A DNA stretch of 64,000 bases, from the NCBI GenBank assembly GCA_018262095.1, contig JAGTRW010000012.1:82436-146435 (forward strand). The letters are read 5' to 3'. How positions within the stretch are numbered: position 1 is the first letter of the stretch; each line of letters begins with the position of its first letter. This DNA comes from Pseudomonadota bacterium (GTDB taxonomy: Bacteria; Pseudomonadota; Gammaproteobacteria; Burkholderiales; Rhodocyclaceae). Position numbers and translations under genes: made by a program. Below, in pieces: positions 1,560 to 48,500 of this stretch. The notes beneath the pieces are model-generated. The model did not search any database. It saw only the letters and a list, made by a program, of their open reading frames with translations, and was not told the origin of the DNA.

Positions 1560-1697
1560 GCGCAACAGCCCTCGGTCGCGCCTGCCGCCGGGGGCGCGCT
1601 CAGCGCCGGCCAAACTCGTCGATCGCGCACCGCTTGGCCTGGCGGCGCTGCGGCAGTCTGTTAGAGTTCGTTCCTTTCGGGTTTCTTGGGGCGGCTG

Positions 1698-2438
1698 ATG
1701 CTGATCACTCTGATTTTCGTCGCCGGCCTGTGGGCCGGACTGCAAAATACCCTGGCCGGCGGCGGCTCGTTCATCACCTTGCCGGTCCTGATTCTGTCCG
1801 GAATGACGCCGCTCGCAGCCAACATCACGTCGACCGTCGCGCTGTTTCCCGGGCAGCTCACGTCGGGATTCGCCGGTCGCCGGCTGGTGAGCGGCGCGGG
1901 GCGTCTGCCGTTCCGCGGGCTGTTCGCCATCAGCGTGCTGGGCGGTGCCTGCGGCGGCCTGTTGCTGCTCAATACGCCGTCGACGGTCTTCGCCCATCTG
2001 GTGCCCTGGCTGGTGCTCTTCGCGACGAGCGCCTTCGCCTGGGGCAGCTTCTTCCGCCGGCAGGCTTCGGCGTCGGCGCATCTGGGGCCGGTCGGCGCCG
2101 CCCTGGCGCAATTTGCGATCGCAATCTACGGCGGCTATTTCGGCGGCGGCATCGGTTTCCTGATGATGGCGGCGCTGACCATGGCCGGGTTGCCGACGCG
2201 CAACGCCGCGGCGACCAAGAACGCGCTGGCCGGCGTGATGAACGCGGCGGCCGTCGCGCTGTTTGTGACCTCGCCGCAATTGCACTGGCAGGAAGCTCTC
2301 GCGCTCGGTACCGGCGCCATCGTCGGCGGTCTGCTCGGCTCGTTGGCGCTGCAGCGGGTCAATGAAAAGCTGTTGCGCATCGTCATCGTTTGCATCGGCA
2401 TCGCGCTGACCATCGGCCTGTTCATCAAGCCGGTCTGA
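1698..2438 (+). CDS. TauE/SafE family (sulfite exporter-like) membrane protein
   Basis: AGGGSFITLP and YGGYFGGGIG motifs, multi-TM; ATG at 1698 preferred over 1686. Confidence 0.85.
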   Translation: MLITLIFVAGLWAGLQNTLAGGGSFITLPVLILSGMTPLAANITSTVALFPGQLTSGFAGRRLVSGAGRLPFRGLFAISVLGGACGGLLLLNTPSTVFAHLVPWLVLFATSAFAWGSFFRRQASASAHLGPVGAALAQFAIAIYGGYFGGGIGFLMMAALTMAGLPTRNAAATKNALAGVMNAAAVALFVTSPQLHWQEALALGTGAIVGGLLGSLALQRVNEKLLRIVIVCIGIALTIGLFIKPV

Positions 2439-2450
2439 AAACCTTCGGTG

Positions 2451-2780
2451 TCAGCCCGGCGTGAGGTTGCGCATCACGACATAGGCGGTGGTGCCGAGCA
2501 CGATGCTGAGCAGCGCGTTCCTGCTGCGCCATTGCAGCACGATCACCATGACGACGGCCAAGAGCTCCGGCCACGGGCCGAGCCTGTCCTGCTGCGCCGA
2601 GCCGGCCGCCGAGTGCAGCAGCAGCAGCGTCATGATCGCCAGCGGCAGGAATTCGCCCAAGCGTTCGACGATAGTGTTCTTTTGCAGCCACTGCGCGGCG
2701 ATAAAGGGTAGCGCGCGCAGCGCCAGGGTGATCAGCGCCATCGCGGCGATGACTCCGACGATGTAGCGTGCGTCAGTCAT
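2451..2780 (-). CDS. azlD: AzlD-family branched-chain amino acid exporter small subunit
   Basis: ITLALRALPF and LP..IM..L motifs; overlaps the azlC stop. Confidence 0.8.
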   Translation of the reverse strand: MTDARYIVGVIAAMALITLALRALPFIAAQWLQKNTIVERLGEFLPLAIMTLLLLHSAAGSAQQDRLGPWPELLAVVMVIVLQWRSRNALLSIVLGTTAYVVMRNLTPG

Positions 2781-3492
2781 GATCAACGCCGCCGGCGATA
2801 GCCCGCTTGGGCTGCCAGAGCATCGCGGCAGCGATGCTGAGCACGATCGAAATTACCAGCGCGTGTTTTCCCGCCAGCGGGTAGGCCAGCGCATAGGCGG
2901 CCAGCGCCACCCAGAGCGGGGCCGCGCTTTTCCGGGTTCGCCACTGCTCGACGGTGAGCACGGCAAACAGCGCGGCGAGCACAAAATCGAGTCCGGCCAG
3001 CGCCAGCTGCGCTTGCGCGCCGATGATCGCGCCGCATGTGGAGCCCAAGACCCACCAACTGTGATTGAGCAGCGCGAGCAAGGCCATCTGTTTGTCGCTG
3101 GTCGACTTGGGCAGCGTGGTGAGCACCGAGTAGGTCTCGTCGGTCAGCGCAAAAACCAGGTACCAGCGCAGCCACCCGTTCTTCGGAAACCGGTTCAGCA
3201 AGGACAGCCCGTAGAATATATGGCGACTATTGACGATCAGGGTCGCCAGCGCAATCGTTCCGACCGGAAGCCCGGCAGCGATCATCGGGATCATCATGTA
3301 CTGCGCCGCGCCAGCGTACACCAGCAGGCTGGAGAGGACGGCCAGCGACCAGTGGGCTCCGGCCTGGACGAAGAGGAATCCGAAAACCATCCCGAGCGGG
3401 ATGTAGCCCATCGCCACCGGAGCGGTCAGCGCGAGTAGCGAAAAACTGCTTGCGGTGGACTCGAACGCCGCGGGAGCGTGTCGTTTCATCAA
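2773..3492 (-). CDS. azlC: AzlC-family branched-chain amino acid exporter permease
   Basis: GYIPLG, YAGAAQY, NSRHIFYG and LTDETY motifs. Confidence 0.9.
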   Translation of the reverse strand: MMKRHAPAAFESTASSFSLLALTAPVAMGYIPLGMVFGFLFVQAGAHWSLAVLSSLLVYAGAAQYMMIPMIAAGLPVGTIALATLIVNSRHIFYGLSLLNRFPKNGWLRWYLVFALTDETYSVLTTLPKSTSDKQMALLALLNHSWWVLGSTCGAIIGAQAQLALAGLDFVLAALFAVLTVEQWRTRKSAAPLWVALAAYALAYPLAGKHALVISIVLSIAAAMLWQPKRAIAGGVDHD

Positions 3493-3625
3493 GGGGAGAA
3501 CCGAGCGGGAAGGGCGCTATGGTAACAAAATAACGCAGCGTCGCAGCGTCGCTTGGCAAATGGGGTGGTGCCGGCAATCCTGCGTTGCGTACCGGCGAGT
3601 TGCAATCGACGGCGTCGAGCGGGCG

Positions 3626-5662
3626 TTATCCCGGCGCGTCGGTGCCATGAAAATGGATCGAGTTGCGTCCGGCCGCCTTGGCTTGATACATGGCCGCGTC
3701 GGCCCACTTGAGCAGGTCATCCGGGCTGGCGCCGTCGTTGATCAACATGGCCACGCCAATGCTCGCGCTGCAACGATGATCTACGATCGTGTCGGCCAGG
3801 CCTTCGTGCTTGAGGGTCAGCCGGTAGGTGGCAGACAGCGCGGCACGGATTTTTTCGGCAACGATACGGGTGAGTGCCGCCGATTCGGTTTCGTCAGCGT
3901 TCAGCTCGCTGAGCAATACGACGAACTCGTCGCCGCCGAAACGCGCGACGGTGTCGATTTCGCGAACGCAATTTCTGAGTCGATGCGCCGCCTCGACGAG
4001 CAGCAAGTCGCCGGCGATATGCCCATGGGTGTCGTTGAGCGACTTGAAATTGTCGAGGTCGAGGAACATCAGCGCGCCGTGACAGGCGTTCCGCCTGCCG
4101 GCCGCCATGGTCTGGTTGAGACGGTCGCTGAACAGACGTCGGTTGGGCAGGGTGGTGAGCGGGTCGTAGAACGCCAGCAGGTGGATCTGGCGTTCCTTGC
4201 GTTTGCGCTCGGTGATGTCGAAGTGCGCGCCGACATAATGGCTCACCGCACCCTCCTTGTCCTTAACCGCCGAGATGGTGAGCCATTTTGGAAAGATCTC
4301 GCCGTTTTTGCGCCGGTCCCATATTTCGCCTTGCCAGCCGCCCGTGCGGTTGAGCGTTTCCCACATTTGTCGATAGAATTCTTTGTCGTGCCGACCCGAC
4401 TTGAGCAGGTTCGGTTTCTGGCCCATGGCTTCTTCGGCGGTGTACCCCGTGCTCTCGGTGAACGCCTTGTTGACGCGCAGGATTATGCCGCGCGCGTCGG
4501 TGACCACCATCCCTTCGTGCGATTCAAACGCCGCGGCGGCGATGCGAAGCTCGGCCTCGGCGACGAGCAGCGCGTTCTCTCGGAGCGCCAGCGTTGCCAG
4601 CAGTCGATTGAAGCCAGCGATCAATTCGGCGATTTCGCCCTGGCCCGGAATGTCGAGCAGCTGCGGGCGCTGATTGCTTGCGCTCAGCTTGGCCAGGGTT
4701 CTGACGGTGGTTAGCATTGGCGTGAGTTCGCGGCGCAGTATCAACCAGATCACGCCGCTCGCCAGCAGCCCGAGGACGATCGTCGCCAACGCCATGAGCT
4801 TGCGCGCGGCGCGCAAGGGCGCCAGGGCGTCCTCTTTGGGCAGCGCGATCAGCACCTGCCAGTCGGTCATGGGGATCGCTTTGGCTGCCGCCAGCAGTTC
4901 GTCTCCCCGGGCGTTGAAGGCGGCGCCGAAGCCTTCGTGGCCGGTCAAGAACTGCTCGATCAATGGGCTGGTTCCTGGCGCGGCCAGCGTTTCGGTAATG
5001 CCGTTGCGGTCGCTGCCGGCGATCACTCGCCGCTGTCGTGTCGAGATTAGGAGATAGTTGCCGGCCTTGCTGTCGGTGCTTTGCGTGAATCGCTGCAGGA
5101 AACCTGAGCGGTTGACATCGCTTACGCCAATCAGGGCGCCGATCACCTTGCCCTGCTTGTCGCGCAGCGGCGTGGCCAGGCCGACAACCGGGCTCGGCGC
5201 GCTGCCGGCCGGCTGACCAAGGCTCGTTGCACCGTCGTTGAGCGCGTTGGCGACGAACGCCCAGTCACTGAAGCGGGCGCCGATACGTGCGCTCGACGAT
5301 GGAATCGCGACCGTCGCCACGCCGTCGGCGCCAACGATGAAGGCCCCCTCGTTGAACAGTACTGGCCAGCTCGGCCGCCGTTCGAGCCGCGCCCGTAGCG
5401 CCGCATCGGTCAGAAGCGCCGGCGTGAGCGTTGCGGCGACGGCTTCAATTTCGCTTCGTCGATCGCGCAGTTCCTGATCGATGCCTGCCGCGATACTGGC
5501 GGCGGTCGATAGCTGCTGTTCGCCGATCATGCCCTGTATCGCCTGATGCAAAATTCCTCGACCGTAGACCGCCAGGGCCAGGGTGCTGATCAGGAAAATG
5601 GCGAGCGTGAACAGCGTGACCCGGGCCTTGATCGAGCGCAGCGTGAAGATGGCGAAATTCAT
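3626..5662 (-). CDS. Membrane-bound diguanylate cyclase (Cache-like sensor, HAMP, PAS, GGDEF)
   Basis: Two TMs; PAS GEIWDRRKNGE; GGDEF site ARFGGDEF preceded by RxxD I-site (REID). Confidence 0.92.
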   Translation of the reverse strand: MNFAIFTLRSIKARVTLFTLAIFLISTLALAVYGRGILHQAIQGMIGEQQLSTAASIAAGIDQELRDRRSEIEAVAATLTPALLTDAALRARLERRPSWPVLFNEGAFIVGADGVATVAIPSSSARIGARFSDWAFVANALNDGATSLGQPAGSAPSPVVGLATPLRDKQGKVIGALIGVSDVNRSGFLQRFTQSTDSKAGNYLLISTRQRRVIAGSDRNGITETLAAPGTSPLIEQFLTGHEGFGAAFNARGDELLAAAKAIPMTDWQVLIALPKEDALAPLRAARKLMALATIVLGLLASGVIWLILRRELTPMLTTVRTLAKLSASNQRPQLLDIPGQGEIAELIAGFNRLLATLALRENALLVAEAELRIAAAAFESHEGMVVTDARGIILRVNKAFTESTGYTAEEAMGQKPNLLKSGRHDKEFYRQMWETLNRTGGWQGEIWDRRKNGEIFPKWLTISAVKDKEGAVSHYVGAHFDITERKRKERQIHLLAFYDPLTTLPNRRLFSDRLNQTMAAGRRNACHGALMFLDLDNFKSLNDTHGHIAGDLLLVEAAHRLRNCVREIDTVARFGGDEFVVLLSELNADETESAALTRIVAEKIRAALSATYRLTLKHEGLADTIVDHRCSASIGVAMLINDGASPDDLLKWADAAMYQAKAAGRNSIHFHGTDAPG

Positions 5663-5711
5663 TCAGACTCTTGTCGTTCCTGGTGGCGGCCATTCGGGAC
5701 CCGTGGCGTGT

Positions 5712-5882
5712 TCAAAGCGGCGGCTGCGCCAGTTCGCTGGCCAGCGCCGTCAGCGGCCGCGCGCGGCGCCACAGCTTCGAGCGGTCGCGGCGCGTGTTCT
5801 CAGCGTCAAGCACGGCGTAGGCGGTCGGCGCCTCGATGCGCCGACGACCGAGCTTGCCGCTCGCCAGCGCCACGCCCAATGG
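5712..5882 (-). pseudogene. Relic 3' end (56 codons + stop) of the gene at 8951-10006
   Basis: Translates PLGVALASGKLGRRRIEAPTAYAVLDAENTRRDRSKLWRRARPLTALASELAQPPL*; 33/55 residues identical by hand to the C-terminus encoded at 8951-9118; no start codon or upstream homology. Confidence 0.85.
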
Positions 5883-5892
5883 GCGCTATCCT

Positions 5893-7446
5893 TCAGGCCG
5901 GGTGCCTTTCGTTGATGGCGACAAACTCGTCAAAATGCTCAAGGAAGATGTCGACCAAGTGCGGGTCGAAATGCTTTCCTCTTTCCTTTTTGATGTGATC
6001 GTAGACGTCTGAGGTTTTCCAGGGTTGTTTATAGACCCGGCTGTGGCACAAGGCGTCAAACACATCGGCCAATCCGGTGATGCGCGCGTAGATGTGAATC
6101 TCCTCGCCGGCCATGCCGTCCGGATAGCCCGTGCCATCCCAGCGCTCGTGGTGGCGATGGGCGATGACTGCGGCAGCTTCCATGATTTCCCGACGTGACT
6201 TGCGCAGGATGCCATAACCGATGGCGGCATGCGGCTTGATCTGTTCGAACTCCTCGGCGGTCGGCTTGCCGGGCATGGTCAGGATGGCTTCCGGTATGCC
6301 GACCTTGCCGATGTCATGCATCGGCGACGCCATGCGCAGAATGTCGGCCTGCTCTTCATCGAAGCCGGCTTTCATCGCCAATAGCCAGGAAACCTCGGCA
6401 ACCCGCTTGACGTGATTGGCCGTTTCGTTCGAATGGGTTTCGACGACCTCGCCCAGCGTGTAAATGACCTCTTTCTGGGTCTCGATGATCTCGTAGTTGA
6501 GGTCCAGATTCTTGAAGGCAATCGATACGTTGGTCGAAAACAGGCGGATCAGATCGCGATCCATTTCCAGCAGGTTCTGTACGTCGCCGTTCAAATAGAG
6601 GATGCCTGTTCGTCCGCTGGGGGTCGGGAAGTAGCCGATATACGCATCCGGGAAGAACAGGCTGCTCTGCGCGGCGACCGCCTGCGCCAGGCGATCATTG
6701 ATTTCGTCCGACATCAGCGGGTCGGAATCTTTGCCGGAGAACGACTCGTACATGCCGGTGGCGGCCAGAATGACAAACCTGTTTTTTTCATCCGGCAGCG
6801 AAAATCCGGCATTGTGGAAATACAGCGAACTCTCGTCGTAGTTGAGAATCGAGAGCAGTTGGGTCAATACCCCGTTGGCGAACTGGCGAAGCGACTGGAT
6901 TTCGAAGAGCTGAGCCGAGGCGTTGATGATTTGCAGCAATCCCCTGCGGTTGCGGTCGATGATGTGCAGGTCACGATGCGAACGCAGCGCAGTGATGACG
7001 CTGGTGGTCAGCTTCTGAACGGTGAGTTCGGATTTTTCCTTGTAGTCGTTGATGTCGTAATCCATGATCACGCGCTTTTCCGGCGCCTGACCGGGGCGCC
7101 CGGTGCGCAGGATGATGCGCACCAGCGTGTTGCGCAGCGTTTCACGGATGTGGCGCGCCACATCGAGTCCGGTGTGCTCGCTCTCCATCACGACGTCGAG
7201 CAGGATGACCGCCGTATCGGGGTGCTCTTGCAGCAGGGCTTTTGCCTCTTCACCGGAGTATGCGCTGATGAAAGACAGGCCGCGATCTTCAAAGGAAAAG
7301 TCCTTTAGCGCCAGGCGCGTCACGCGATGGATTTCCTCTTCATCATCGACGATCATCAGCTTCCAGGCTTCTCGCCGGTGCTTGGGCGATGGTGCCGTTT
7401 CTTCGGCAAAAAGCAGATCGTCGTTCAAATCTTTGGCGCTGTTCAT
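5893..7446 (-). CDS. Response regulator with REC, DUF3369-like and HD-GYP domains (c-di-GMP phosphodiesterase)
   Basis: IVDDEE...LLDVVM receiver; HDIGK...HHERWDGTGYP HD-GYP motif; overlaps kinase stop. Confidence 0.9.
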   Translation of the reverse strand: MNSAKDLNDDLLFAEETAPSPKHRREAWKLMIVDDEEEIHRVTRLALKDFSFEDRGLSFISAYSGEEAKALLQEHPDTAVILLDVVMESEHTGLDVARHIRETLRNTLVRIILRTGRPGQAPEKRVIMDYDINDYKEKSELTVQKLTTSVITALRSHRDLHIIDRNRRGLLQIINASAQLFEIQSLRQFANGVLTQLLSILNYDESSLYFHNAGFSLPDEKNRFVILAATGMYESFSGKDSDPLMSDEINDRLAQAVAAQSSLFFPDAYIGYFPTPSGRTGILYLNGDVQNLLEMDRDLIRLFSTNVSIAFKNLDLNYEIIETQKEVIYTLGEVVETHSNETANHVKRVAEVSWLLAMKAGFDEEQADILRMASPMHDIGKVGIPEAILTMPGKPTAEEFEQIKPHAAIGYGILRKSRREIMEAAAVIAHRHHERWDGTGYPDGMAGEEIHIYARITGLADVFDALCHSRVYKQPWKTSDVYDHIKKERGKHFDPHLVDIFLEHFDEFVAINERHPA

Positions 7447-8777
7447 ACGCTCACTTTCGCGATTTCTGCAGAAGACGTTGCATGAAAGAAGAGGCTTCTG
7501 TTGAGTGGGCTGATGCGTGGAATCTGCATGCGGAATACGACGCCCTGACCGTATTCACTTTCCATTTTGATGCGCCCGCCAAGCGTCTGCGTCACCAGGT
7601 TGTACAAAATATGCAATCCGAGTCCGGTTCCGCCATGGTTTCGTTTGGTCGTGAAAAAGGGTTCGAAGATATGCTCGAGATTTTCCTTGGGAATTCCTTT
7701 GCCATCGTCACGATACGTAAGAACGATATCGTTCGCTTGATCGATGACTTCGATTGAAATCATCCCCGCTTTCGTTTCTTCGAAACCATGCAGCAGGGAG
7801 TTCATGATCAGAATCGAGACGATCTGCCCCAGCGCCCCGGCATAGCTCTTCAGGACGATATCCTCATGGCACTGCAGTTGCACCGAATGGGCGCCCTTTT
7901 TGAGCATCGGGCGCAGACTCATGATGTGGTTCTCGAGGCACTCCCTGAGACGGAAGGTGTTGATCTCCTCGCACGACTGATCGACCGCGACCTGTTTGAA
8001 GCGCTGAATCAGATCCGACGCGCGTCCAAGATTCGAGAGGATCATCGCCGATGACTCGAGCGCGAGCTGGAAGTAAGCCTCAAGATCGGAGCGCTTCATC
8101 GCCTGGGTCGAGAAAAGTGCTGCGCACTCCCTGGTTTTTTCCTCGAGCAAGGACGCTGCGGTCACCCCGATACCGACTGGCGTGTTGATTTCATGGGCCA
8201 CTCCCGCCACCAGTCCACCCAAGGCAGCCATTTTTTCAGACTGGACCAGATGATGTTGGGTTTCGCGCAACAGTTCCAGAGAACTTTGCAGCTCGGACAC
8301 CGTCTGCGCGAGCTTGATATTGAACTCGTGCTCTCTTTCTTCGGCGAGTTTTGTGGTGCTGATGTCCTGGAGTGTCTGAATCGCACCGGTAATTTGCCCC
8401 GCAGCGTTCTTCAAGGGGGCCGCGGTAAAAAACAGCCACTTTCCTCCCGCGCCCTGGGTGAGCCGATAGGCTTCGGCCTCATAAGCCTCATCGATCAAGG
8501 TCGATTTGCGAGCATTGCCCTCGAAATGAATCAGAATTTTCTGTTCGTCAGGTTCGTCGACCACATAGTCGGCCAGAACGTTGGATCGCTTATCGTAAAA
8601 AGCCATCCATTGATTCTTCGTTCCGATCACGTCCTTGGCCAGCAAACCGGTCAGCGCCTCGCAGGCGATATTCCAATGGGTGACCGTATGGTCGCGGTCG
8701 ATAATGAAAGTTGGAATGGGGCTGCCATTAATGATCTGGTCATCTGGATGGTTCATTTCATGCATGTTGGCGGCCAT
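7443..8777 (-). CDS. Soluble PAS sensor histidine kinase
   Basis: N-terminal PAS; H-box AGVAHEINTP; N-box NSLLHGF; G boxes DDGKGI, GGTGLGL; no TM. Confidence 0.92.
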   Translation of the reverse strand: MAANMHEMNHPDDQIINGSPIPTFIIDRDHTVTHWNIACEALTGLLAKDVIGTKNQWMAFYDKRSNVLADYVVDEPDEQKILIHFEGNARKSTLIDEAYEAEAYRLTQGAGGKWLFFTAAPLKNAAGQITGAIQTLQDISTTKLAEEREHEFNIKLAQTVSELQSSLELLRETQHHLVQSEKMAALGGLVAGVAHEINTPVGIGVTAASLLEEKTRECAALFSTQAMKRSDLEAYFQLALESSAMILSNLGRASDLIQRFKQVAVDQSCEEINTFRLRECLENHIMSLRPMLKKGAHSVQLQCHEDIVLKSYAGALGQIVSILIMNSLLHGFEETKAGMISIEVIDQANDIVLTYRDDGKGIPKENLEHIFEPFFTTKRNHGGTGLGLHILYNLVTQTLGGRIKMESEYGQGVVFRMQIPRISPLNRSLFFHATSSAEIAKVSV

Positions 8778-8950
8778 GGATCGACGAAGAAATATCTTTG
8801 CGAGTTTAGTACTTGTATCGGCTTTTCGTCTATGACTTTGGTGAGCTTTGGTGAGCTTTTGTCAGACCGACGTGGTCGGCTCGATTTGAGTGCCTTGGCG
8901 CGCACGATGGTCATTGCTGCCCGCCATCAAGGGCCTTTGCTGGCCAAGCC

Positions 8951-10006
8951 TCAGGCGGTTGTCGCCAGTTCTTGGGCGAGCGCCGCGAGCGGCTGCGCGC
9001 GGCGCCACAGCTTCCACTGTTCGCGACGCGTGCTCTGCCAGGCGAGCGCCGCGTAGGCGGTCGACGCTTCGATGCGCAGCGCGCTGATCTTGCCGCTCGA
9101 AAGCGCCGCGCGCAGCGGCGCGAACCAGCGCGCTTCGAGCCCGGCAAGCGCGCTGCGGTAGGCTTCGCCGTGCTGGTAGAGCACCGGCACGAGCAGGTCC
9201 TCGACGACGACCAGTTGGCGGGTGTCGGGCGCGGCGTGCTCGAACAGCGTCGCCGCATCGACCGGCAGCCGGTGCGTCGGAACACCGGCGGCACGTGCCA
9301 GGCCCAGCGCCAGCGGGTTGCCGCTCCAGACCCCGTCAAAGTCGCTTTCCCGGCGTGCTGGCAGCGCGCCTGCGCCCCACAACCACAGGCTGTTGATCGC
9401 CAGGCGGCCGTCGTTCTCGCGCTGCGCGTTGAGCGGATGCGCGTGCAGCAGCATCTGCGCTTCGTTGTGCAGCGCGCGCAAGCGCCTGGCCGACGCCGTA
9501 GCGGGCAGCAGTCGGTCGATGCGGCGGCCGGCGACGGCCGACAGCGGCGGCGTGTCGAGCGCGGCGGCGAGCGTGCTGTCGGCGAGCTCGAGATACCAGC
9601 GATCGGGCGCCGCGACGTGGAAACGGCCGACGTCGGCGAGCTCGCGGTTAAGCTCGCCGGCGAGCGCTTGCGCTTCGCCCGCGGTGATCTCGAAGCGGGT
9701 ACTGTCGGCCAGAATCAGCTGCTCCTGATGGAAGCGCAGATGCACCGGGTCGCAGCACAGCCAGCAGCCAGTGCTCGCTTCGGCTGGCGGGTACGCCTCG
9801 CCGAGCAGGCGAAAGGCGGCGTAAGGCGCTCCGGGCGGTTGGCCGAAAGCGTCGGCGAGCGTCGCTTCGAGCGATTGCGCTGCGCGCCGCGTGCGCCGGC
9901 TACGCGCGAGCAATGTTTCGAGCGCCGGGCAGTCGATGAAGTCGAGCGTCTCGCGGTCGGCAGGTTCGGGCCAGATCAGTTCGGGGACGATGAGAGTGAG
10001 TTGCAT
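8951..10006 (-). CDS. Conserved protein of the phosphoglycerate mutase-like / RpfE-like family typically found divergent from lolC/E
   Basis: WLCCDPVHL, LHNEAQMLLHAHPLN and INSLWLWG motifs; position divergent from lolC/E; start MQLTLIVP at 10006. Confidence 0.7.
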   Translation of the reverse strand: MQLTLIVPELIWPEPADRETLDFIDCPALETLLARSRRTRRAAQSLEATLADAFGQPPGAPYAAFRLLGEAYPPAEASTGCWLCCDPVHLRFHQEQLILADSTRFEITAGEAQALAGELNRELADVGRFHVAAPDRWYLELADSTLAAALDTPPLSAVAGRRIDRLLPATASARRLRALHNEAQMLLHAHPLNAQRENDGRLAINSLWLWGAGALPARRESDFDGVWSGNPLALGLARAAGVPTHRLPVDAATLFEHAAPDTRQLVVVEDLLVPVLYQHGEAYRSALAGLEARWFAPLRAALSSGKISALRIEASTAYAALAWQSTRREQWKLWRRAQPLAALAQELATTA

Positions 10007-10154
10007 GGCGCCTGCGAAGATTGGAAAAGTGGCGATCGATGCGCTGATAAATTCGCTGATCGGTACGGCGCCAGGGAAGCGCGAGAACAAAAAGTGTAGC
10101 ATAGCGCCTTTGCCGCTCCGGCCCGCTAATCAAACCCATGAGCTCACGCACCTG

Positions 10155-12104: not shown

Positions 12105-12292
12105 GAACGCAATTCAAACCAAACGACATGCCCCGCAGGAAATACCCTTGGGGTACAACGGGCACAACGAAGAGCGTCTGTTTGGGAGAGGTTATGCCTC
12201 GCCCGCTGGGTGACTCAGATAAACGATTTAGCTTATTGTTTTTTCGCCGTGTTCGTTGTGTTCGTCGTGGTTAACTGCTTTTTCCAGGTTCA
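12105..12292. repeat. Palindromic MITE/REP-like element, copy 1 (carries a 27-nt nested insert at 12129-12155)
   Basis: Left arm aacc-aaacgaca-[insert]-caacgggcacaacga; right arm tcgccgtgttcgttgtgttcgtcgtggtt; loop and outer flanks homologous to 28714-28880. Confidence 0.85.
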
Positions 12293-15200
12293 TTCACCCG
12301 ACGGGCGGCGCGCGTCGCGCAAGATTTGCCGGGCGCTCGCGAATTCAAACTGCTCGATCTGCCGCGCGAAATGATCGCCGCGCGCGCCCAGAGCGTTGCG
12401 CAGCGTTGCGGCGTGCTGCGTGAACAGCGCGGTGGCGTCGGCGTCATGGTGCGCCAGCTTATCGTCGAGTTCGTCGAACAGCGCGTCGAGCAGCGCCGGG
12501 CGGGGGGCCGTAGTCGTCACCGCCGACGGGGCCGCGAGCGCCGGCAGCGCGGCGGCGAGCGACGCGAGCTCGTCATCGACGGCGGCGACCGCCGCGTCAA
12601 GATCGCGGCTGTCGGGACTGCCGACTTGCTGCGCGCGCAGTGCGTTCTCCAGGCACTGCGCCGCCGCCGCCAACTGGTCGGCGCCGAGCGTCGCACCGGT
12701 GCCGCGCAGCGTATGCGCCAGGCGCTGTGCGGCGGCCTGCTCACCCTGCGCCAGACTGGCGCGCAGCCGCGTCATGTCGTCGGCGTGGGCGTCGACGAAA
12801 CGGCCGAGCAGCTCGCGATACTTGCCAAAATTTCCGCGCAAGCTGGCCAGTCCGCGCTCGAGGTTGAGTCCCGGGATATCGGCGAGTTGCGCTCGTGCCG
12901 CGCCGTCGATCGTCGCTGGCTTTGGCGTCGCCACCACCAGCGTGCTTGGTGCGGGTCTCGCGGCACCGGGCGCACCGGGCGCAGGCGCCAGCGACAGCCA
13001 GAGCAGCAGGCTCTGGTAGAGCGTCGCGGGTTCGACCGGCTTGGAAATGAAGTCGTTCATTCCGGCCTCTTCGCACGCCAGGCGGTCCTCGTCGAAGGCG
13101 TTGGCGGTCATCGCGACGATCGGCCTTGTCTGCCAGCCGGGCAGCGCGCGAATCGCGCGCGTCGCCTGCAGTCCGTCCATTTCGGGCATCTGCATGTCCA
13201 TCAGGATCAGATCGAAGTCGTGCGCGCGCGCCTTGGCCACCGCCTCGCGGCCGTCGCTCGCGGTATCGACGGTGAGCCCGACGCCGTGCAGCAATTCGAG
13301 CGCCACTTCACGGTTGATCGGATGGTCCTCGACGAGCAGGATGCGCGCGCCGCTGTGATTTTTGCGCAACTGGCTCTCGGCATTGGCGGTTTCGGGCGCC
13401 GCGGTGCCGGGCAGGATGCCGTGGCCGCGTTGCAGTCGCGCGGTAAACCAGAAGGTGCTGCCGACGCCCGGCGTGCTGGTCACGCCGACTTCGCCGCCCA
13501 TCAGCTGCGCCAGGCGCCGGGTGATCGCCAGTCCCAGGCCGGTACCGCCGTACTTGCGCGTGGTCGACGCGTCGGCCTGCTCGAACGACTGGAACAGTCG
13601 GCCGATCTTGTCTTGATCGATGCCGATGCCGCTGTCGGCGACCTCGAAACGCACCAGCAGTTCGCCGTCGCGGTCTTCGAGCAGCCTGGCCGAAATCGCG
13701 ATGACGCCGCGCTCGGTAAACTTGACGGCGTTGCCGGCGTAGTTGAGCAAGGCCTGGCGCAGTCGCGTCGGGTCGCCGCGCAGCCAGAGCGGAACGGCGT
13801 CGCCGTCGAGGGTCACGGTGAGCCCCTGATGGCGCGCCGACTCGCCGATGATCGAGCCGACGTTGTCGAGGATCGCCGAGAGGTGAAAATCGGTACTCTC
13901 CAATTGCAGCAGGTCGGCCTCGATCTTCGACAGGTCGAGGATGTCGTCGATGATGGTCAGCAGATGCTGGCCGGCGTTGTCGATCTTGTCGAGCCGTTCG
14001 GCCTGTTGCGGCGTTACCGCGCTGCGCCGCAACAGGTGGGTCAGGCCGATGATCGCATTCATCGGCGTGCGGATCTCGTGGCTCATATTGGCCAGGAAGG
14101 TGCTCTTGGCGCGGTTGGCGGCGTCGGCTTGCTGGCGCGCGCGCGAAAGCTCGGCGGTGCGGCTGTCGACCAGTTCTTCGAGGTGATGGCGATGGCGGTC
14201 GAGTTCTTCGCCGATCAGCTTCTTCTCGGTGATGTCTTCCTTGACCGCGACGTAGTGGCTGATCGAACCGTCGCTCTGGCGTAGCGGCGTGACGATGGCG
14301 AACTCGATATAGTCGCTGCCGTCCTTCTTGCGGTTATGGAACTCGCCTTTCCACGGGATCCCCTGGGTCATCGCCTGCCACAGGCTGTGGTAGGTTTCGG
14401 GCGGCGTTTGCCCCGATTTGAGGATTTTCGGATTTTGGCCGATCACTTCGTCGCGGCCATAGCCGGTGGTTCGCACAAAGGCTTCGTTGACGTATTCGAT
14501 GTTGGCATCGACGTTGGTGATGACGATGCTCTCCGGACTTTGCTCGAGTGCCAGTGAGAGCTTGCGCAATTCCTTTTCGCTCGCCTGACGCTCAGCTTCG
14601 CGCGAGAAATTGTCGAGGGCAAAGCTGACGTCGGTCGCCATCTGCATCAGCAGTTCGCGGATTTCCGCATCAAACGCGTAAAGCTGGCTCGAATAGAGCA
14701 CCAGCGTGCCGATCGCGACGCCATTGCGGGTCAGCGGCAGCGCCGCCGACGAGCGCCATCCGGCGCGCGCGCACTGCTCATGCCAGGGCGCGGTGATCGG
14801 GTCGTTGAGGAAGTCCTGGACCCACACTGGACGAAGTTCGCGCATTGCCGTTCCGGTGGCGCCGCGGCCCAGGGCGCTCTCGGCATCGCAGGAGACCTGC
14901 ACGGCCTTCAGGAAATCGGTCGCGTCGCCAAAGCTGGCGACCGGCCGAACGTTGAGCGAAACGGGATCGGCGAGCCCGATCCAGGCCATCTTGAGGCCGC
15001 CGAACTCGACCGCGCAGCGGCAGATTTCGGGGAACAATTCCGCTTCGCTGGGGCTCCGAACGATGGCCTGACTGCATCCGCTCAAGGCCGCGTAGAACTG
15101 GCCCAGACGCTGGATTTTGAGTTCGGCGTTCTTGCGCTCGGTGATGTCGCGCGAAATGCCGAAAATTCCGATGACCTCACCGCTCTCGTCGCGCAGCGGC

Positions 15201-15772
15201 CCCTTGATCGCCAGAAAGGTCCGCTCGCCGTCGACGGTGGCGATCGTTTCCTCGTAGGTTTTGACCTGCATCGCAGCGATCACCTGCACGTCGTTGGCGC
15301 GGATCATCGCCGCCTGCTGCGGCGGGAAAAGCGCCGTATCGTCGAAGCCGATCGCCTCGCCGGCGCGCTTGCCGATCAGTCGCGCCGTTTCGCGGTTGAA
15401 GAGCAGGTAGCGTCCCGCTTTGTCCTTGGCGAAAATGGCGTCGGGCGAACTGTCGGCGATCACGTCGAGCAATTGCTGGGTGCGAATTCTCTCGTTCTGC
15501 GCTGCGAGCTCGCGCGTTGACGTCGCAGCGACCTGCGCGGCGAGTCGCTTGATCAGTCCGTACAGCAGCAGCGAAGTGACGGCAACGAATAGCCAACCCT
15601 TGACCGTACTGACCAGCGCAATGGTTTGCGGATCGTGCAACAGCAAGGCCAGCAGATGGTCGGAGAGCAGGATCCAGAGGCCGGCGAAGGCGGCATAAAC
15701 GAGAACGACGCGCAGTGCGGCGTCGGGCGTCCGGCGTCGCGCGGTGGGCGGCGTATTTCCCGCTGGGGTCAT
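12290..15772 (-). CDS. Hybrid sensor histidine kinase (2TM, PAS, GAF, PAS, HisKA, HATPase, REC, Hpt)
   Basis: [15 protein letters not shown]-box; GDPTRLRQ; YGGTGLGL; LILMDMQMP receiver; AHTLRG Hpt. Confidence 0.93.
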
Positions 15773-16713
15773 GACGGAACAAGCGGCGCCGTGGTGGACG
15801 GTGCCGGCAACGCGCCACTGTCGAGGTAGCGCATGGCGATCGCGACAAAATCGTCGAAGCCGGCCAGGAAGGCGTCGGTGACGTCGGGGTCGAAATGCGT
15901 GCCGCGGCCGGCGGCGATGATTTCGCGCGCCTGATCGTAGGACATCGCGGTCTTGTACGGGCGCACCGAGATCAGCGCGTCGAAGACGTCGGCGATCGCC
16001 ATCAGCCGCGCTGAAACGGGGATCGCTTCACCGGCGAGGCGGTCGGGGTAACCGCTGCCGTCCCATTTTTCGTGGTGCCAGTGGGCGATTTCCTTGGCCG
16101 TCGCGAGAAAAGCCAGCGGCATTTCGATGTCCACTTCGGCCTGCTCGATGGCGTCGCTGCCGAGCGCGGCATGCGTCTGCATGATCGCCCATTCGTCGGC
16201 GTTGAGCTTGCCCGGCTTGAGCAGGATGTAGTCGGGAATGCCGACCTTGCCGATGTCGTGCAGCGGCGCCGAGCGGCTCAACAAATCGATATAGCGCTCG
16301 GTGAGCGTCGCGGCGAAGCGCGGATGCTGGCGCAGACCGACCGCCAGCCGCTGCACGTAGCCCTGGGTGCGCATGATGTGGTTGCCGGTTTCGGTATCGC
16401 GCGTTTCGGCCAGATGCGCCAGCGCGCGGATGTCGCCGGCATCGGCCAGCGCGGTCAGGAAGACCACCGGAATGTCGCGCGTCGCCGAAGCTTCGCGCAG
16501 CTTGGCGAGCACCGCGTAACCGTCCATTCCGGGCATCATCACGTCGAGCAGGATGAGGTCGGGCGTCGGCTCGCTGTGAGCGACACGCAGACCGACTTCG
16601 CCCGAGTTTGCCGCCAGCACGCGGTAGTGCGGCCGCAGCAGTTCGTAGAGCACGTGCAGGTTTTCGGCGGCGTCGTCGACGATCAGGATGACTGGGTTGG
16701 CGGCAGGTGACAT
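15769..16713 (-). CDS. REC-HD-GYP response regulator with an in-frame internal deletion (possibly defective)
   Basis: ILIVDD...LLDVMMP receiver stops at [10 protein letters not shown] and joins directly to [12 protein letters not shown]; HD-GYP ([16 protein letters not shown]) intact. Confidence 0.85.
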
Positions 16714-16822
16714 ATACGCTAGGCGAGGGCTTGTCAGATGCTCAAGTCTAACCCGATTTTTGCGCAGCGAGATCGGTCTTCGTTGGCGAACGCTCAATAA
16801 ATCGCGGCAGCGGGCGCCATGC

Positions 16823-18523: not shown

Positions 18524-20878
18524 ATGCGGCTCTCCATTCTTGCTTTTCTGCTGGGCGTGGCGCTTCTGCAAATGCAGGCCGAGTTGATTGGCGCCGGCGT
18601 TTATGGCGGCCTGGCGGCGCTGGGCGCGCTGCTGGCGGCGAGGCCCGCGCTCGCTGCGCTGCCTGGCACGCTTTGGCCTGCGCTGTGGCGCGCGCTCGGT
18701 GCGGCGCTGCTCGGTTTCGCCTGGGCCGGATGGCTCGCGCAGCAGCGGCTCGCCGATCGCTTGCCCGAGGTCTGGGAAAACCGCGAGATCGCACTGACCG
18801 GCGTCGTTGCGTCGCTGCCGCAACGCTTCGAGCGTGGCGAGCGCTTTGCCTTCGACGTCGAAGCGGTGCACTCCCGGGCGGCGATCGTCCCGCGCCGCAT
18901 CCAGCTGGCGTGGTATCACGCTTGGGACGAGGCGGTCGCTGGCGCCGAAGAGGCGGAAGACGTCGGCGCAGCGCGCGGCGTTCGCCCCGGCCAGCGCTGG
19001 CGTTTCACGGTGCGCCTCAAGCGCCCGCACGGCAACGCCAACCCGCACGGTTTCGACTACGAAGCCTGGCTGCTCGAACGCAACATCCGCGCGACCGGCA
19101 GCATCCGCGGCAACGGCGAGCGAGTCGACGACTTCGTCGCACGCCCAGGCTACGCGGTCGAACGGCTGCGCGATGCGATCCGCAGCCGCTTTCTCGGCGC
19201 GCTGCCCGATGCGCCTTATCTTGGCGTGCTGATTGCGCTGGCGGTCGGCGATCAGCGCGCGATCGCCAATGATCAGTGGACGGTCTTCAACCGCACCGGA
19301 GTCACGCACCTGATGTCGATTTCCGGGCTGCATGTGACGATGGTCGCCGCGCTCGGCGCGCTGCTGATCGACGCGCTGTGGCGGCGCAGCCGGCGCTTGC
19401 TGCTGTGGCGGCCGGCGCGACAGGCGGCGGTGGTCGCCGGCTGGCTGGCGGCGGCCGCCTACGCGCTGCTCGCCGGCTTCGAGGTGCCGGCGCAGCGCAC
19501 GCTCTACATGCTGACCGTGGTCGCTGCGGCGCTGCTCAGCGGACGCAATTTCGGCGTTGCGCGAACCGTGCTGCTCGCTTTGCTGGTCGTGCTCGTATTC
19601 GATCCCTGGGCGGTGCTGGCGGTCGGCTTCTGGCTGTCGTTCGGCGCCGTCGCGCTGCTGCTTTTCGTCGGCAGCGCTCGCCTGCGCGAGCCGCGTGGCG
19701 CGCGCGCCGGCCTGGCACGCTGGGGTACTGCGCAATGGGCGGTAAGCGTCGGCAGCTTGCCGCTCTTGCTGCTCTTTTTCCAGCAGTTCTCGCTCGTCTC
19801 GCCGCTCGCCAACGCGCTGGCGATTCCGCTCGTCAGTTTCGTCATCACGCCGCTGGCGCTCGTCTTTGCCGTGCTGCCGTGGCCGCCGCTGCTGGTCGTC
19901 GATCACTGGCTGCTGACGCAACTGATGAACGCGCTCGAAGCGCTCGCCGACTGGCCGCTCTGGCAGCAAGCGGCGCCGCCGCTGTCGGCGACGCTGCTGG
20001 CGCTCGCTGGCGTCGCCTGGCTGCTTCTGCCGCGCGGCTTTCCGGCGCGCTGGCTTGGCCTGTGCCTGCTGCTGCCTGCGCTGTGCTGGCCGCCGCCGCG
20101 TCCGCCACCGGGAGAAGCCTGGGTCGATGTGCTCGACGTCGGCCAGGGGCTGGCGGTCGTCGTGCGCACCGCCGGCCACGCGCTGCTCTACGACAGCGGA
20201 CCGCTTTACGGCGGCGAGGCCAACGCCGGAGCGCGCGTCGTCGTCCCTTATCTGCGCGCGGTCGGCGTCGGCAAGCTCGATGCGCTGGTGCTTTCGCATC
20301 GCGACCGCGACCACGTCGGCGGTGCCGGCGCAGTGCAATCAGCGCTGCCGGTCGCCCGGCTGCTCAGCTCGATTGCCGAGTTGTCCGAACGGCCCGGCGA
20401 ACGTTGCCAGGCTGGCCAGTCGTGGCAATGGGACGGCGTGCGCTTTGCTATCGTCCATCCGCTGGCGACCGATTACCTGATCGCGGGCAAGCGTTCGAAC
20501 AGCATGAGCTGCGTGCTGCAGGTCGGCAACGGTGAGGACGGCGGCGCGCTGCTCACCGCCGACCTCGAGGCCGCCGACGAGCTGGCGCTACTGGCGCGCT
20601 CGCCGCTCGCCAGCGCGGTGCTGGTCGCGCCACATCACGGTGGCCGGGGGTCGTCGACGCCCGAGTTCGTCGCTGCCGTCGGCGCGCGCCAGGTGATTTT
20701 CTCGGCGGGTTACCGCAATCCCTTCAACCATCCGCATCCGGCGGTGCTCGAACGCTACGCCGCCAGCCGTCAGTGGCGAACCGATCGCGACGGCGCGCTG
20801 CACATCGTACTGGCGCCTGCGGGCGCCGACGTCTCGGCGTGGCGCGAGACGCATCGTCGCTACTGGTACGCGCGTTGA
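18524..20878 (+). CDS. comEC: DNA internalization competence protein ComEC/Rec2
   Basis: THLMSISGLHV competence motif; VLDVGQG; metallo-beta-lactamase SHRDRDHVGG; PHHG. Confidence 0.95.
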   Translation: MRLSILAFLLGVALLQMQAELIGAGVYGGLAALGALLAARPALAALPGTLWPALWRALGAALLGFAWAGWLAQQRLADRLPEVWENREIALTGVVASLPQRFERGERFAFDVEAVHSRAAIVPRRIQLAWYHAWDEAVAGAEEAEDVGAARGVRPGQRWRFTVRLKRPHGNANPHGFDYEAWLLERNIRATGSIRGNGERVDDFVARPGYAVERLRDAIRSRFLGALPDAPYLGVLIALAVGDQRAIANDQWTVFNRTGVTHLMSISGLHVTMVAALGALLIDALWRRSRRLLLWRPARQAAVVAGWLAAAAYALLAGFEVPAQRTLYMLTVVAAALLSGRNFGVARTVLLALLVVLVFDPWAVLAVGFWLSFGAVALLLFVGSARLREPRGARAGLARWGTAQWAVSVGSLPLLLLFFQQFSLVSPLANALAIPLVSFVITPLALVFAVLPWPPLLVVDHWLLTQLMNALEALADWPLWQQAAPPLSATLLALAGVAWLLLPRGFPARWLGLCLLLPALCWPPPRPPPGEAWVDVLDVGQGLAVVVRTAGHALLYDSGPLYGGEANAGARVVVPYLRAVGVGKLDALVLSHRDRDHVGGAGAVQSALPVARLLSSIAELSERPGERCQAGQSWQWDGVRFAIVHPLATDYLIAGKRSNSMSCVLQVGNGEDGGALLTADLEAADELALLARSPLASAVLVAPHHGGRGSSTPEFVAAVGARQVIFSAGYRNPFNHPHPAVLERYAASRQWRTDRDGALHIVLAPAGADVSAWRETHRRYWYAR

Positions 20879-45253: not shown

Positions 45254-45544
45254 GCAGGTCGATGGAATCAGTGTCAATTCTTCGCCGGCGGTTTGGAATA
45301 CTTCGATCGCGGTAATCGGGCTACTGATTTTTATGTATCCCCTGTGTCTGCCGCAACGGGGCGACTGAGGCCTGAACATAAGCCCACATTGAGCGTTACT
45401 AATCATTCCGGATGCGATATAGTCGTCCATGGTTGGCTTGGTGTCCGCCAGGCAAGGCGCGGGGCAGTCAATTCATCACAACGGGAAGTGAAAGCGCAAC
45501 TTCATCTTGCCGACAAGAAAATGCCATCAAGGGCGGAAATCTGC

Positions 45545-48500
45545 ATGAGTCGGACTGCTTTTCGGGGGCGATCGCTCAAGACGAAGATCACCCTGGCCAC
45601 GCTTGCCATCTTTCTGTTGAGCCTTTGGGCACTTTCGTCGTACATCAGCCAGATGTTGCGCAAGGACATGGAACGCTTGCTCGGCGAAGAGCAGTTTTCG
45701 ACCGTCTCCTTGATCGCCACCCAGCTTAACCGCGAACTCGCGAACCGCATGGCGGCGCTGCAACAAGCGGCCCCGCCGTTCGGCGCGGCGATCGAGGTCG
45801 GATCGGCGGTGACGCAGACGATGATCGAGCAACGTCCGGCGCTGCATGCGCTGTTCAACGGCGGGGTCTATGTCGCCGGCGTCGACGGTACGGCGATCGC
45901 CGATTTTCCCTTGCCCGTCCAGCGCGTCGGCGTCAATTACAGCGACCGCGATTACATTGCGACGCCATTGAAGACCGGCGCCACGGTGATCGGCCGGCCG
46001 GTGATCGGCAAGCGGGCCGGGGCGCCGGTTTTTGTCATGTCGGCGCCGATTCGCGACGCGCAGGGCGCGGTGATCGGCGTGCTGGCCGGAGTGACCAGTC
46101 TCGATGCGCCCAATTTTCTCGACGAAATCACCGAAGGCCGCTACGGCGAAACCGGCGGCTACCTGCTGGTCGATGCAGGGCACCGGCTGGTGATCACCGC
46201 CTCGGACAAGAGCCGGGTGATGGAGTCGCTACCGCCGCCTGGCGTCAGCCCCGCGATCGACCGCTTCATCAATGGCTTCGAAAGCTCGACCGTCGTCGTC
46301 AATCCACAGGGCGTCGAGGTGCTCGTCTCGGCCAAGGGGATTCCAGTGGCGGGTTGGTATCTGGCGGCGTCGCTACCGACCGCCGAGGCGTTTTCGCCGA
46401 TTTGGCAGATGCAGCAGCGCATGCTGTGGGTGACGCTGGTGCTTACTGTGCTCGCTGGTGCGCTGACCTGGTGGATCGTTAGGCGCCAGCTCTCGCCCTT
46501 GCTCTCGACCGCCAAGACGCTGGCGGCACTGTCCGATTCAGGCCAGGCGCCACCCCCCTTGGCGGTCACCAGCGACGATGAAATCGGCGAGTTGATCGGC
46601 GGCTTCAACCGCCTGCTCGAGACATTGGGGGCCCGCGAGCTTGCCTTGCGCGACAGCGAGGAGCGCTTCAAGGCGTTGCACGACGCGTCGTCGAGCGGCA
46701 TCATGATCCATGAGAACGGCGTCATTCTCGACTGCAATCAGGGCCTCGCCGAAATGACCGGCTATGCCGTAGACGAGCTGGTCGGCATGGACGGGCTGCA
46801 ACTCGCGGCACCCGAGTGGCGCGAGCAGGTCGTCAGCTATGTTCGATCCGGCCTCGACGAGCATTATGATGCCGCCGGCCAGCGCAAAAATGGTACGCGC
46901 TATCAGCTCAGCGTGCGCGGTTGCAATATTCCCTACAAGGGGCGGACGGTTCGCGCCACGGAATTCATCGACATCACCGAGCGCAAACAGGCCGAAGACC
47001 AGCTTCAGCTCGCCGCCAGCGTGTTCACCCACGCCCGCGAAGGCATCCTGATCACCGACACGGCAGGTAGCATCATCGACGTCAACGAGTCATTTTCGCG
47101 AATCACCGGTTATTCGCGCGACGAGGTGCTCGGCAAGAACCCTCGCCTGCTGAGCTCGGGTCGTCAGGAAAAATCGTTTTACGCCGAGCTGTGGCGCGAC
47201 CTCTCCGACAAAGGCCATTGGTACGGCGAACTCTGGAACCGGCGCAAGAACGGCGAGCTGTTCGCCTCGATGCAAACGATCAGCGAAGTTCGCGACGTGC
47301 AGGGAAAGCCTCAGCAGTATGTCGCGCTGTTCTCCGATATCACCGCCGCCAAGACGCATCAGAAGCAGCTCGAACGCATCGCGCACTACGACGGGCTGAC
47401 CATGCTGCCCAACCGCGTGCTGCTTGGCGATCGGCTGCACCATGCGATGGCGCAGGTGCCGCGACGCAAAAACTCGCTGGCCGTAGCCTACCTCGACCTC
47501 GACAGCTTCAAGTCGGTCAACGACCAGTACGGGCACGAAACCGGCGACCAACTGCTGATCGCCATGGCGCGCCACATGAAGCAGGCGCTGCGCGAAGGCG
47601 ATACCCTGGGGCGCCTGGGCGGCGACGAGTTCGTCGCCGTCCTGCCCGACCTCGACGAGGTCGCCGACAGCCTGCCGATCATCGCCCGTCTGCTCGTCGC
47701 TGCGGCGCAGCCGGTCGCCGTCGGCGATCTCTCGCTGCAGGTCTCGGCGAGTATCGGCCTGACCTTCTATCCGCAAGCCGAAGAGATCGATGCCGATCAG
47801 CTGCTGCGCCAGGCCGATCAGGCGATGTATCAGGCCAAGCAGGCGGGAAAGAGCCGCTACCATGTTTTCGACGCCGAACAGGATCGCAACGTTCGTGGCC
47901 ATCACGAGAGCCTCGAGCACATCCGCCACGCGCTCGGCGAACGCGAATTCGTCCTCTATTACCAGCCCAAGGTCAATATGCGAACGGGGACGGTGATCGG
48001 CGCCGAGGCGCTGATTCGCTGGCAGCACCCCGAGCGCGGCCTGTTGCCACCGGCGGTGTTCCTGCCGGTGATCGAGGATCATGCGCTGGCGATCGACGTC
48101 GGCGAATGGGTGATCGATAGCGCGCTGACGCAAATGGAGCGCTGGCGTGATGGCGGACTGGCGATTCCGGTGAGCGTCAATGTCGGCGCGCGTCAGCTGC
48201 AGCAGCCGGGGTTTGCGCAGCGCCTCGCCGAGTTGCTCGCCGACCATCCCAGTATTCGGCCCAGCGACCTCGAACTCGAGGTGCTCGAAACCAGTGCGCT
48301 CGAAGATCTCAGCCGCGTCGCGCAGATCATCGAGGAGTGCACCGCGCTCGGCGTTCGCTTCTCGCTCGACGACTTCGGTACCGGTTACTCGTCGCTGACT
48401 TACCTCAAACGCTTGTCGGTGAGCCAGATCAAGATCGACAAGAGTTTCGTTCGCGATATGCGCGACGATCCCGACGACCTGGCGATTTTGCAGGGGATCC

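Follow-up and report, generated by a model that had tools for sequence, protein, structure and literature searches.

A duplicated gene end beside a foreign two-component pair suggests the stacking of two alleles by illegitimate recombination in a Rhodocyclaceae genome

The stretch of DNA analyzed here, hereafter the window, comprises 64,000 nucleotides of contig JAGTRW010000012.1 (positions 82,436 to 146,435; Rhodocyclaceae, assembly GCA_018262095.1). Within it, a cassette of two genes, a sensor histidine kinase (HK) and a response regulator (RR), separates the gene for a conserved hypothetical protein, which we call X, from a remnant of a second X 3' end (the relic) and a diguanylate cyclase gene (DGC). 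We favor, with modest confidence, an origin in which one recombination event resembling homology-facilitated illegitimate recombination (HFIR) stacked an X-HK-RR allele onto an X-DGC allele. An initial annotation, made from the sequence alone, had named HFIR as an alternative, and it is the best-fitting mechanism. The argument is carried by the different ancestry of the two X tails, by related loci in which X and DGC adjoin with no cassette between them, and by the erosion of the relic in close relatives.

The duplicated tail and the foreign pair

The features of the locus, in the order in which the minus strand reads them, are:

8951..10006, minus strand: gene X, encoding a 351-aa conserved hypothetical protein, divergent from lolCD
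8963..9118, minus strand: resident (functional) copy of the duplicated X tail, X codons ~297-348, GC 0.726, in sequence similar to the X of the related locus L098
8778..8950, minus strand: X-HK spacer, 173 nt, GC 0.526, compositionally part of the cassette
7443..8777, minus strand: HK, first cassette gene, a PAS-HisKA-HATPase sensor histidine kinase (Pfam)
5893..7446, minus strand: RR, second cassette gene, a predicted REC-DUF3369-HD-GYP response regulator and RpfG-type c-di-GMP phosphodiesterase, overlapping HK by 4 nt
5881..5889, minus strand: ATAGCGCCC, left copy of a 9-nt direct repeat, exactly at the proposed illegitimate joint of the sequence downstream of RR and the relic, with a GCGCC that recurs in TTCGCGCCG of the X tail
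5712..5882, minus strand: relic, X codons ~296-351 plus stop, in frame
5663..5711, minus strand: relic-DGC spacer, 49 nt, corresponding to the X/DGC overlap region of relatives plus ~32 extra nt
3626..5662, minus strand: DGC, a dCache-HAMP-PAS-GGDEF diguanylate cyclase and the original downstream partner of X
3503..3521, minus strand: CATAGCGCCCTTCCCGCTC, a motif upstream of AzlC that holds the right copy of the 9-mer (3512-3520)
2773..3492, minus strand: AzlC, the right-hand flank

The initial annotation took 5712-5882 for an in-frame, stop-terminated copy of the last ~56 codons of X, and the alignments bear this out. A repeat search recovers an ungapped direct repeat of 152 nt at 78% identity (5727-5878 against 8963-9114, spacing 3236 nt). 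In tblastn the relic and the X tail share 33/52 amino acids (63%, E 1e-16), and no other match lies below E 0.03 in the 64 kb; codon-aligned, 121/162 nucleotides are identical. The open reading frame of the relic (5712-5879, minus strand) has 55 codons with its stop at 5712-5714, and begins at 5882 if the preceding Pro codon is counted. Its translation, (M/L)GVALASGKLGRRRIEAPTAYAVLDAENTRRDRSKLWRRARPLTALASELAQPPL, parallels the C-terminus of X. Homology begins at the Pro-Leu codons (5882), directly after TGAAGGATAGCGCC, which follows the RR stop codon, and a weak similarity, judged by eye in the alignment only, seems to extend ~35 nt past both stop codons. Both tails have a GC content of 0.73-0.74.

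Between the two copies lie HK and RR only, gene calls and Pfam agreeing with the earlier description of a PAS kinase and a REC/HD-GYP regulator. The pair is also, as had been suspected, AT-richer than its flanks: GC is 0.533 in HK, 0.568 in RR and 0.526 in the X-HK spacer, against 0.711 in X, 0.633 in DGC and a window mean of 0.646, while GC at third codon positions is 0.656 in HK and 0.747 in RR against 0.79-0.87 in the flanking genes. No 1-kb window anywhere in the 64 kb is lower in GC than those in the cassette and the X-HK spacer. Beyond the X clade of the window, RR homologues are metagenome proteins at 77-66% identity; the first named ones belong to Desulfuromonadaceae (66%), followed by Desulfobacterales/Thermodesulfobacteriota (55-59%). 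Because of this low GC, and because the nearest named relatives lie outside the Betaproteobacteria, HK-RR looks foreign and probably derives from a lower-GC, non-betaproteobacterial source. A perfect 10-nt tandem duplication (AAAGCTCACC twice) is present in the X-HK spacer at ~8840-8859.

Sites without the cassette

The true start of X is at 10006; its homologues, which come from Propionivibrio-like Rhodocyclaceae metagenome bins, are ~352 aa long and start at MQLTL. X has a weak Pfam match to the central part of cofactor-independent (2,3-bisphosphoglycerate-independent) phosphoglycerate mutase, and a PDB sequence search gave no significant match and no close solved structure. A scan of genome contigs with X returned a single match, a distant Accumulibacter locus.

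In the related loci L008, L009 and L010 (X 69-72% identical) and in the Accumulibacter metagenome-assembled genome L001, X is followed by recJ; in L008-L010 the X stop and the recJ start overlap by 4 nt. The cassette-less site that the initial annotation predicted, with X directly followed by DGC, is found in L098 and L095. L098, whose X (protein P0013) is 81% identical and basal to the X clade of the window, reads lolC<>X-DGC-recJ with an 8-nt X/DGC overlap, and its DGC is an orthologue of the one in the window (72% over 513 aa). In L095 (X protein P0031, 71%) the DGC orthologue overlaps X by 14 nt, and the relic, spacer and DGC 5' end of the window align colinearly with the L095 X tail and DGC 5' end. 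In the window DGC starts 49 nt after the relic stop, in keeping with the ~50 bp first estimated. Because empty sites with an overlapping X-DGC pair exist and the order is colinear, the relic and DGC together are the remainder of such a pair. The L098 orthologue (1659-3407), at 582 instead of 678 aa, is short of ~96 aa in its dCache sensor domain.

The X 3' flank is a hotspot of rearrangement and gene turnover. Among sister-clade loci, which include L094, L096 and L097, the gene after X varies by lineage and may be recJ, DGC, an opposite-strand malK-like ABC transporter ATPase, a 141-aa Cys-rich open reading frame or a minus-strand gene. No relative examined has a tandem X copy. Of the 80 loci that a scan of metagenome contigs with DGC found, none exceeded ~41-53% over the full length or had X near the DGC homologue, and public sequencing runs yielded fragmentary contigs of ~85-95% similarity only, with no empty-site joint in them.

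Two lineages of X tail

Judged from their sequences, the two tails belong to different X lineages, so that the relic was not copied from the resident one. The relic shares 39/51 amino acids with P0050, 37/53 with P0041 and 37/52 with P0031, and only 32/51 with the X of the window; it is also closer to these three C-termini than to that of P0013. It has the derived L (GKL), V (AVL) and R (RRARPL) of the P0031/P0041/P0050 subclade and lacks the S (ALSSG) typical of the clade of the window. We placed the relic by parsimony, using tail columns only, on a neighbor-joining tree of X residues 1-296 from 121 proteins. It adds 12 steps on the P0031/P0041 and P0050 branches, 20 on the stem of the X clade of the window and 22 as sister to the X of the window, and with columns resampled, 97.9% of replicates place it in the sister clade and 0.6% in the clade of the window. 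P0031, a member of this sister lineage, carries X-DGC. Because the tails are of different lineages, we reject simple duplication in situ, tandem duplication included, which these step counts disfavor, and likewise a single crossover in which the native 5' part of X would have stayed in place.

When the resident X, for its part, is compared in 120-nt windows from end to end, L098 is nearer to it than L095 in almost all of them, with no lineage switch near codon 296. Since the gene is of one lineage throughout, whatever part of X may have arrived with the cassette was a complete gene, donated by a related bacterium in which X-HK-RR was already in place. The resident tail resembles X in GC and phylogeny and thus did not come from the remote source of HK-RR. 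In the initial annotation the cassette had brought with it a foreign 3' end that repaired the gene; the foreign cassette and the topology of a displaced tail stand, while the foreign end would have to be widened to a whole X allele, given an X of uniform lineage and a tail of X-like GC. As a second marker for the recipient lineage, lolC does not discriminate: its protein is invariant in the fragment at hand and its DNA is nearly equally identical to L098 and L095, the 5' end of the gene being 88-95% identical between lineages.

DGC itself has a composite history. Its PAS-GGDEF half follows the X tree, grouping with the L098 DGC at 97% bootstrap. Against P0242, the closest other DGC homologue found (77% overall), the sensor half is 40-67% identical up to ~aa 290, and identity is ~75% up to ~aa 370 and 95-100% from there to the end, with the switch at ~aa 350-370. 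The N-terminus of P0242 matches the DGC start in L006, and the N-terminus of the window DGC, 64% identical to L095 and 63% to L098, does not discriminate between lineages. This pattern points to a mosaic gene, in which the sensor half and the PAS-GGDEF half meet at a putative recombination breakpoint.

Age and decay of the relic

X, the spacer, HK and RR occur in this order in all five loci examined from the X clade of the window (the window, L002, L003/4, L006/7 and L091/92; X at least 81% identical). The state of the relic differs among them:

Window: intact
L006: diverged (73% over the first 78 nt) and partly deleted; DGC still follows
L002: first ~30 nt left; a peptidase S10 segment replaces the remaining relic and DGC
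L003/4: a further 24 nt lost beyond L002
L091: relic and DGC gone; RR, 35 nt, then AzlC

The X tree groups L091 with L006 at 98% bootstrap. Because of this grouping, the relic-DGC state was already present in the common ancestor of all five loci, and the event is old. L091 is more likely a secondary deletion, mediated by the 9-mer, than a survivor of an ancestral X-HK-RR-AzlC arrangement (allele A below). The segment that, in the closest relatives, replaces most of the relic and the whole DGC spans ~2.5-2.8 kb (L002 7749-10505, L003 14130-14503), with its left breakpoint ~24-30 nt into the relic; in L002 it holds the peptidase S10 gene on the opposite strand. A contig of run X3 has a peptidase-type alternative segment as well, with the joint at window 3497 to 5858. 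No further relic, either of the DGC 3' end or of an X tail, was found upstream of recJ in L002, nor was one found in the region downstream of the window DGC when compared with the L098 DGC-recJ spacer.

The 64 kb contain exactly two copies of the 9-mer ATAGCGCCC, where 0.27 are expected; both lie on the same strand, and they bracket the relic and DGC. At the RR-AzlC junction of L091 there is a single ATAGCGCGC, so that the ends of the deletion are precise. The right copy falls within a 19-nt motif, CATAGCGCCyTTsCCGCTC, that stands upstream both of AzlC (3503-3521, minus strand) and of lolC (10100-10118, plus strand), preceded by an A/T-rich stretch and a TAnnAT-like hexamer, and that also occurs upstream of lolC in L096 and L097. 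It is possibly a promoter-proximal element, such as a shared promoter or discriminator.

Could the relic have been kept because it works, either by serving DGC as promoter, 5' leader or context for translation initiation, or by encoding a 55-aa peptide through re-initiation? DGC does begin within the X tail in L098 and L095, and in the window the frame is still open, AAGGA sits 10 nt before the TTG start of the relic, and no terminator or known Rfam family was found between RR and DGC by a terminator scan and an Rfam search. However, L006 retains only part of the relic, and L002, L003 and L091 have lost it; the relic of the window lacks two strongly conserved Trp residues, of which one is invariant and the other almost so, and a promoter scan found no sigma-70-like promoter. 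We give a retained function little credence. Nei-Gojobori dN/dS over 54 codons is uninformative, as functional pairs alone span 0.2 to 1.05. Because of the lost Trp residues and the erosion or loss in relatives, the relic is best regarded as a non-functional, decaying scar, whose open frame in the window is probably residual. In the spacer that follows it, 5669-5693 (ATGGCCGCCACC) resembles the start of HK at 8753-8777 (ATGGCCGCCAAC), with 76% identity over 25 nt; the likeness (ATGGCCGCCA) has a local-alignment p of ~0.02 against shuffles and could be chance or the trace of a more complex rearrangement.

Proposed origin and alternatives

We propose that two versions of the locus existed in related Propionivibrio-like Rhodocyclaceae, allele A with X-HK-RR-AzlC and allele B with X-DGC, and that allele A had acquired HK-RR earlier from the lower-GC, probably non-betaproteobacterial source. 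The two would have been combined by a single ordinary homologous exchange within a flank common to both (lolC/X to the left, or AzlC to the right) and by one illegitimate joint that ran from just after the RR stop, at the start of the AzlC upstream motif (ATAGCGCC), to X codon ~296 of the other lineage (TTCGCGCCG). These two present-day sequences have GCGCC in common, and the joint was plausibly made at this 5-nt microhomology. The product, X-HK-RR-(X tail)-DGC-AzlC, would keep a complete X and also DGC with the upstream sequence that embeds its start region. The 9-nt repeat would then be a by-product, because the AzlC motif came once from each parent. As X and DGC overlapped, only an event that duplicated their junction could leave both genes intact, which would explain why the duplicate was retained. 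Two directions fit equally well: the cassette with X may have entered an X-DGC genome, or an X tail with DGC may have entered an X-HK-RR-AzlC chromosome. As to topology, the earlier suggestion that the cassette's end displaced the old one is upheld, with either copy a candidate for the old one.

Several points weigh against this proposal. At the DNA level the placement of the relic is not resolved by the 162 sites: the relic is 77-78% identical to L094 and L095 and 75% to the X of the window and to L098, and a DNA tree of 13 loci (the 162-nt tail plus the relic) joins the relic with L095 at only ~60% support. Because DGC is itself a mosaic, homologous recombination could later have "refreshed" the relic together with the 5' half of DGC and so mimic a two-lineage origin. 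Neither parent has been seen as such: no unambiguous pre-joint allele A was observed, L091 more likely being a secondary deletion, and L098 has recJ rather than AzlC after DGC, so that an X-DGC-AzlC form of allele B was not observed either. In experiments the usual outcome of HFIR is a loss of recipient DNA, not a duplicate (PMC3240628). The microhomology, finally, is plausible as read from present-day, not parental, sequences.

Such a refresh is the core of one rival account, in which HK-RR inserted into the X/DGC overlap of one lineage by an event that duplicated ~170-200 nt of that lineage's own X tail, for example through tandem duplication followed by insertion or deletion, or through replication template switching, after which homologous recombination with a P0031-like X-DGC donor overwrote the relic and the sensor half of DGC in the lineage of the window. 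The sharp break in DGC identity at ~aa 350-370 against P0242 implies that recombination tracts end inside DGC, the relic of the window is far better preserved than that of L006, as expected if it were younger, and both tails are X-like in GC. However, this account needs two events where one suffices, no relative examined has a tandem X copy, and L002 shares the first ~30 nt of the relic at an identity like that of the flanks, so that any refresh predates that split; we regard it as rather unlikely. A Campbell-type single crossover, between a circularized X tail-spacer-HK-RR molecule and the chromosomal X tail, would leave a full X upstream and a truncated copy downstream. It gives exactly the observed topology, with a truncated copy that has a fixed beginning and leads on into the native gene downstream, and such crossovers yield duplications of 109-950 bp of the homologous segment in experiments (PMC3240628). 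It nevertheless predicts a common ancestry of X codons 1-296 and the relic, whereas X is L098-like and the relic P0031/P0050-like, and it still requires a donor that already had X-HK-RR, which together make it improbable.

A further rival invokes a recombinase. If HK-RR were what is left of an island that integrated site-specifically at the X 3' end, brought a replacement end and later lost its integrase, the insert would be flanked by direct repeats of a gene 3' end, as it is; empty sites exist, and the L091 junction at the 9-nt repeat looks like a clean excision. Yet the initial annotation's comparison with attL/attR-type end replacement does not hold up. Neither the window up to ~56 kb nor the syntenic loci yielded an integrase, a transposase or a tRNA; specifically, there was no integrase or recombinase among the four Pfam-scanned locus genes or the called genes of L002, L003, L006 and L091, no match in the window to the integrases of L010, and no recombinase among the window's open reading frames from 20.8 to 56 kb. 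The two tails share no long identical att core (78% over 152 nt), the resident tail is X-like and not cassette-like in composition, and the 9-nt repeat flanks the relic and DGC, not HK-RR. We consider such an integration very improbable. Also highly doubtful is the idea that the slot between RR and AzlC is a cassette site with the 9-bp core ATAGCGCCC, working independently of a recombinase or with one acting in trans. If this were true, whole gene modules (the X tail with DGC, or the peptidase S10 gene) would enter, replace one another and leave precisely at this point, L091 would be the excised state, and the X 3' flank would be a programmed hotspot that stacks signaling genes rather than the site of a one-off accident.

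Operon context and neighboring genes

Through the proposed stacking event a diguanylate cyclase would have come to lie immediately behind a two-component pair with a c-di-GMP phosphodiesterase, the three genes apparently sharing one transcription unit, and a functional gain may have followed. In what looks like a single operon, the predicted HD-GYP phosphodiesterase pair is joined to a diguanylate cyclase. Such a shared unit suggests a functional coupling of the two in c-di-GMP turnover.

The surrounding DNA has the following further features:

18524-20869: comEC homologue, 8.5 kb away, near the locus as the initial annotation had pointed out
45293-49042, plus strand: dCache-HAMP-PAS-GGDEF-EAL-CZB c-di-GMP protein of 1249 aa, its PAS-GGDEF region 42% identical to DGC
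15772-16713, minus strand: REC-HD response regulator adjoining a 1160-aa hybrid kinase

The window is unusually rich in signaling genes. Across lolCD there is a second signaling insertion (12290-16797), consisting of the REC-HD regulator and a PAS/GAF hybrid histidine kinase. It lies between a 170-aa gene and lolD in the clade of the window (L003, L006) and in L096, whereas L008 and L010 lack it and have lolD next to the 170-aa gene or comEC. Two blocks, aa 1-94 and aa 159-377, make up the match between the REC-HD regulator and its L003 orthologue; ~63 receiver-domain residues are missing from the regulator of the window, apparently through an in-frame deletion.

Comparison with known systems

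HFIR couples one-sided homology with an illegitimate joint at 3-10 bp of microhomology, and occurs in the natural transformation of Acinetobacter baylyi, Streptococcus pneumoniae and Pseudomonas stutzeri (PMC3240628, PMC6382021). The event proposed here would share with it the homologous flank, the joint at short microhomology and the gain of kilobase-scale foreign DNA that has no recombinase of its own. The 5' end of lolC could serve as the anchor, and AzlC equally on the other side. Ancestry changes across the insert, from an L098-like X to a P0031/P0041/P0050-like relic, and a comEC homologue, a candidate competence gene, lies 8.5 kb away. In contrast to the experimental products, which usually carry a deletion of recipient DNA, this locus has a ~170-nt duplicate, because both parents would have carried X, and the event is reconstructed from comparative data.

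Two further systems have a similar layout. Islands bounded by attL and attR are likewise bracketed by a direct repeat of a gene 3' end, with the gene intact and an empty site in relatives; here neither an integrase nor a tRNA was found in the window up to ~56 kb, an identical core is lacking, and the repeat copies come from different X lineages. Integration of circular DNA by single crossover (PMC3240628) also leaves a full copy and a truncated duplicate of 109-950 bp on either side of the insert, but it predicts that the 5' part of the gene and the truncated copy share their ancestry, which is not seen here.

To our knowledge, natural scars attributable to HFIR-like recombination have rarely been documented outside toxin/immunity loci. 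HFIR has been proposed for the topologically identical C-terminal displacement arrays at rhs, CdiA-CT and type VI secretion effector-immunity loci, among them effector clusters of Vibrio cholerae (PMC5361080, which cites Jackson et al. 2009, PMC2935791). There, too, an incoming module with a complete gene end is set behind the conserved 5' part, and the former 3' end survives farther downstream as an orphan, along with its partner gene, much as the relic and DGC here are colinear with the X tail and DGC of L095. X, however, is not a polymorphic toxin, its Pfam match being the weak PhosphMutase-like one only; the tails are homologous rather than alternative toxin domains, the displaced partner is a DGC and not an immunity gene, and there is a single displacement instead of an array.

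Among these systems the locus is a known kind of recombination scar, with no new element type or mechanism. It offers a natural example of foreign genes wedged between two overlapping genes without the destruction of either, in which the junction is duplicated and one of its copies decays. The order of these events can be read because cassette-less, intact, eroded and cleanly deleted states all persist in related genomes.

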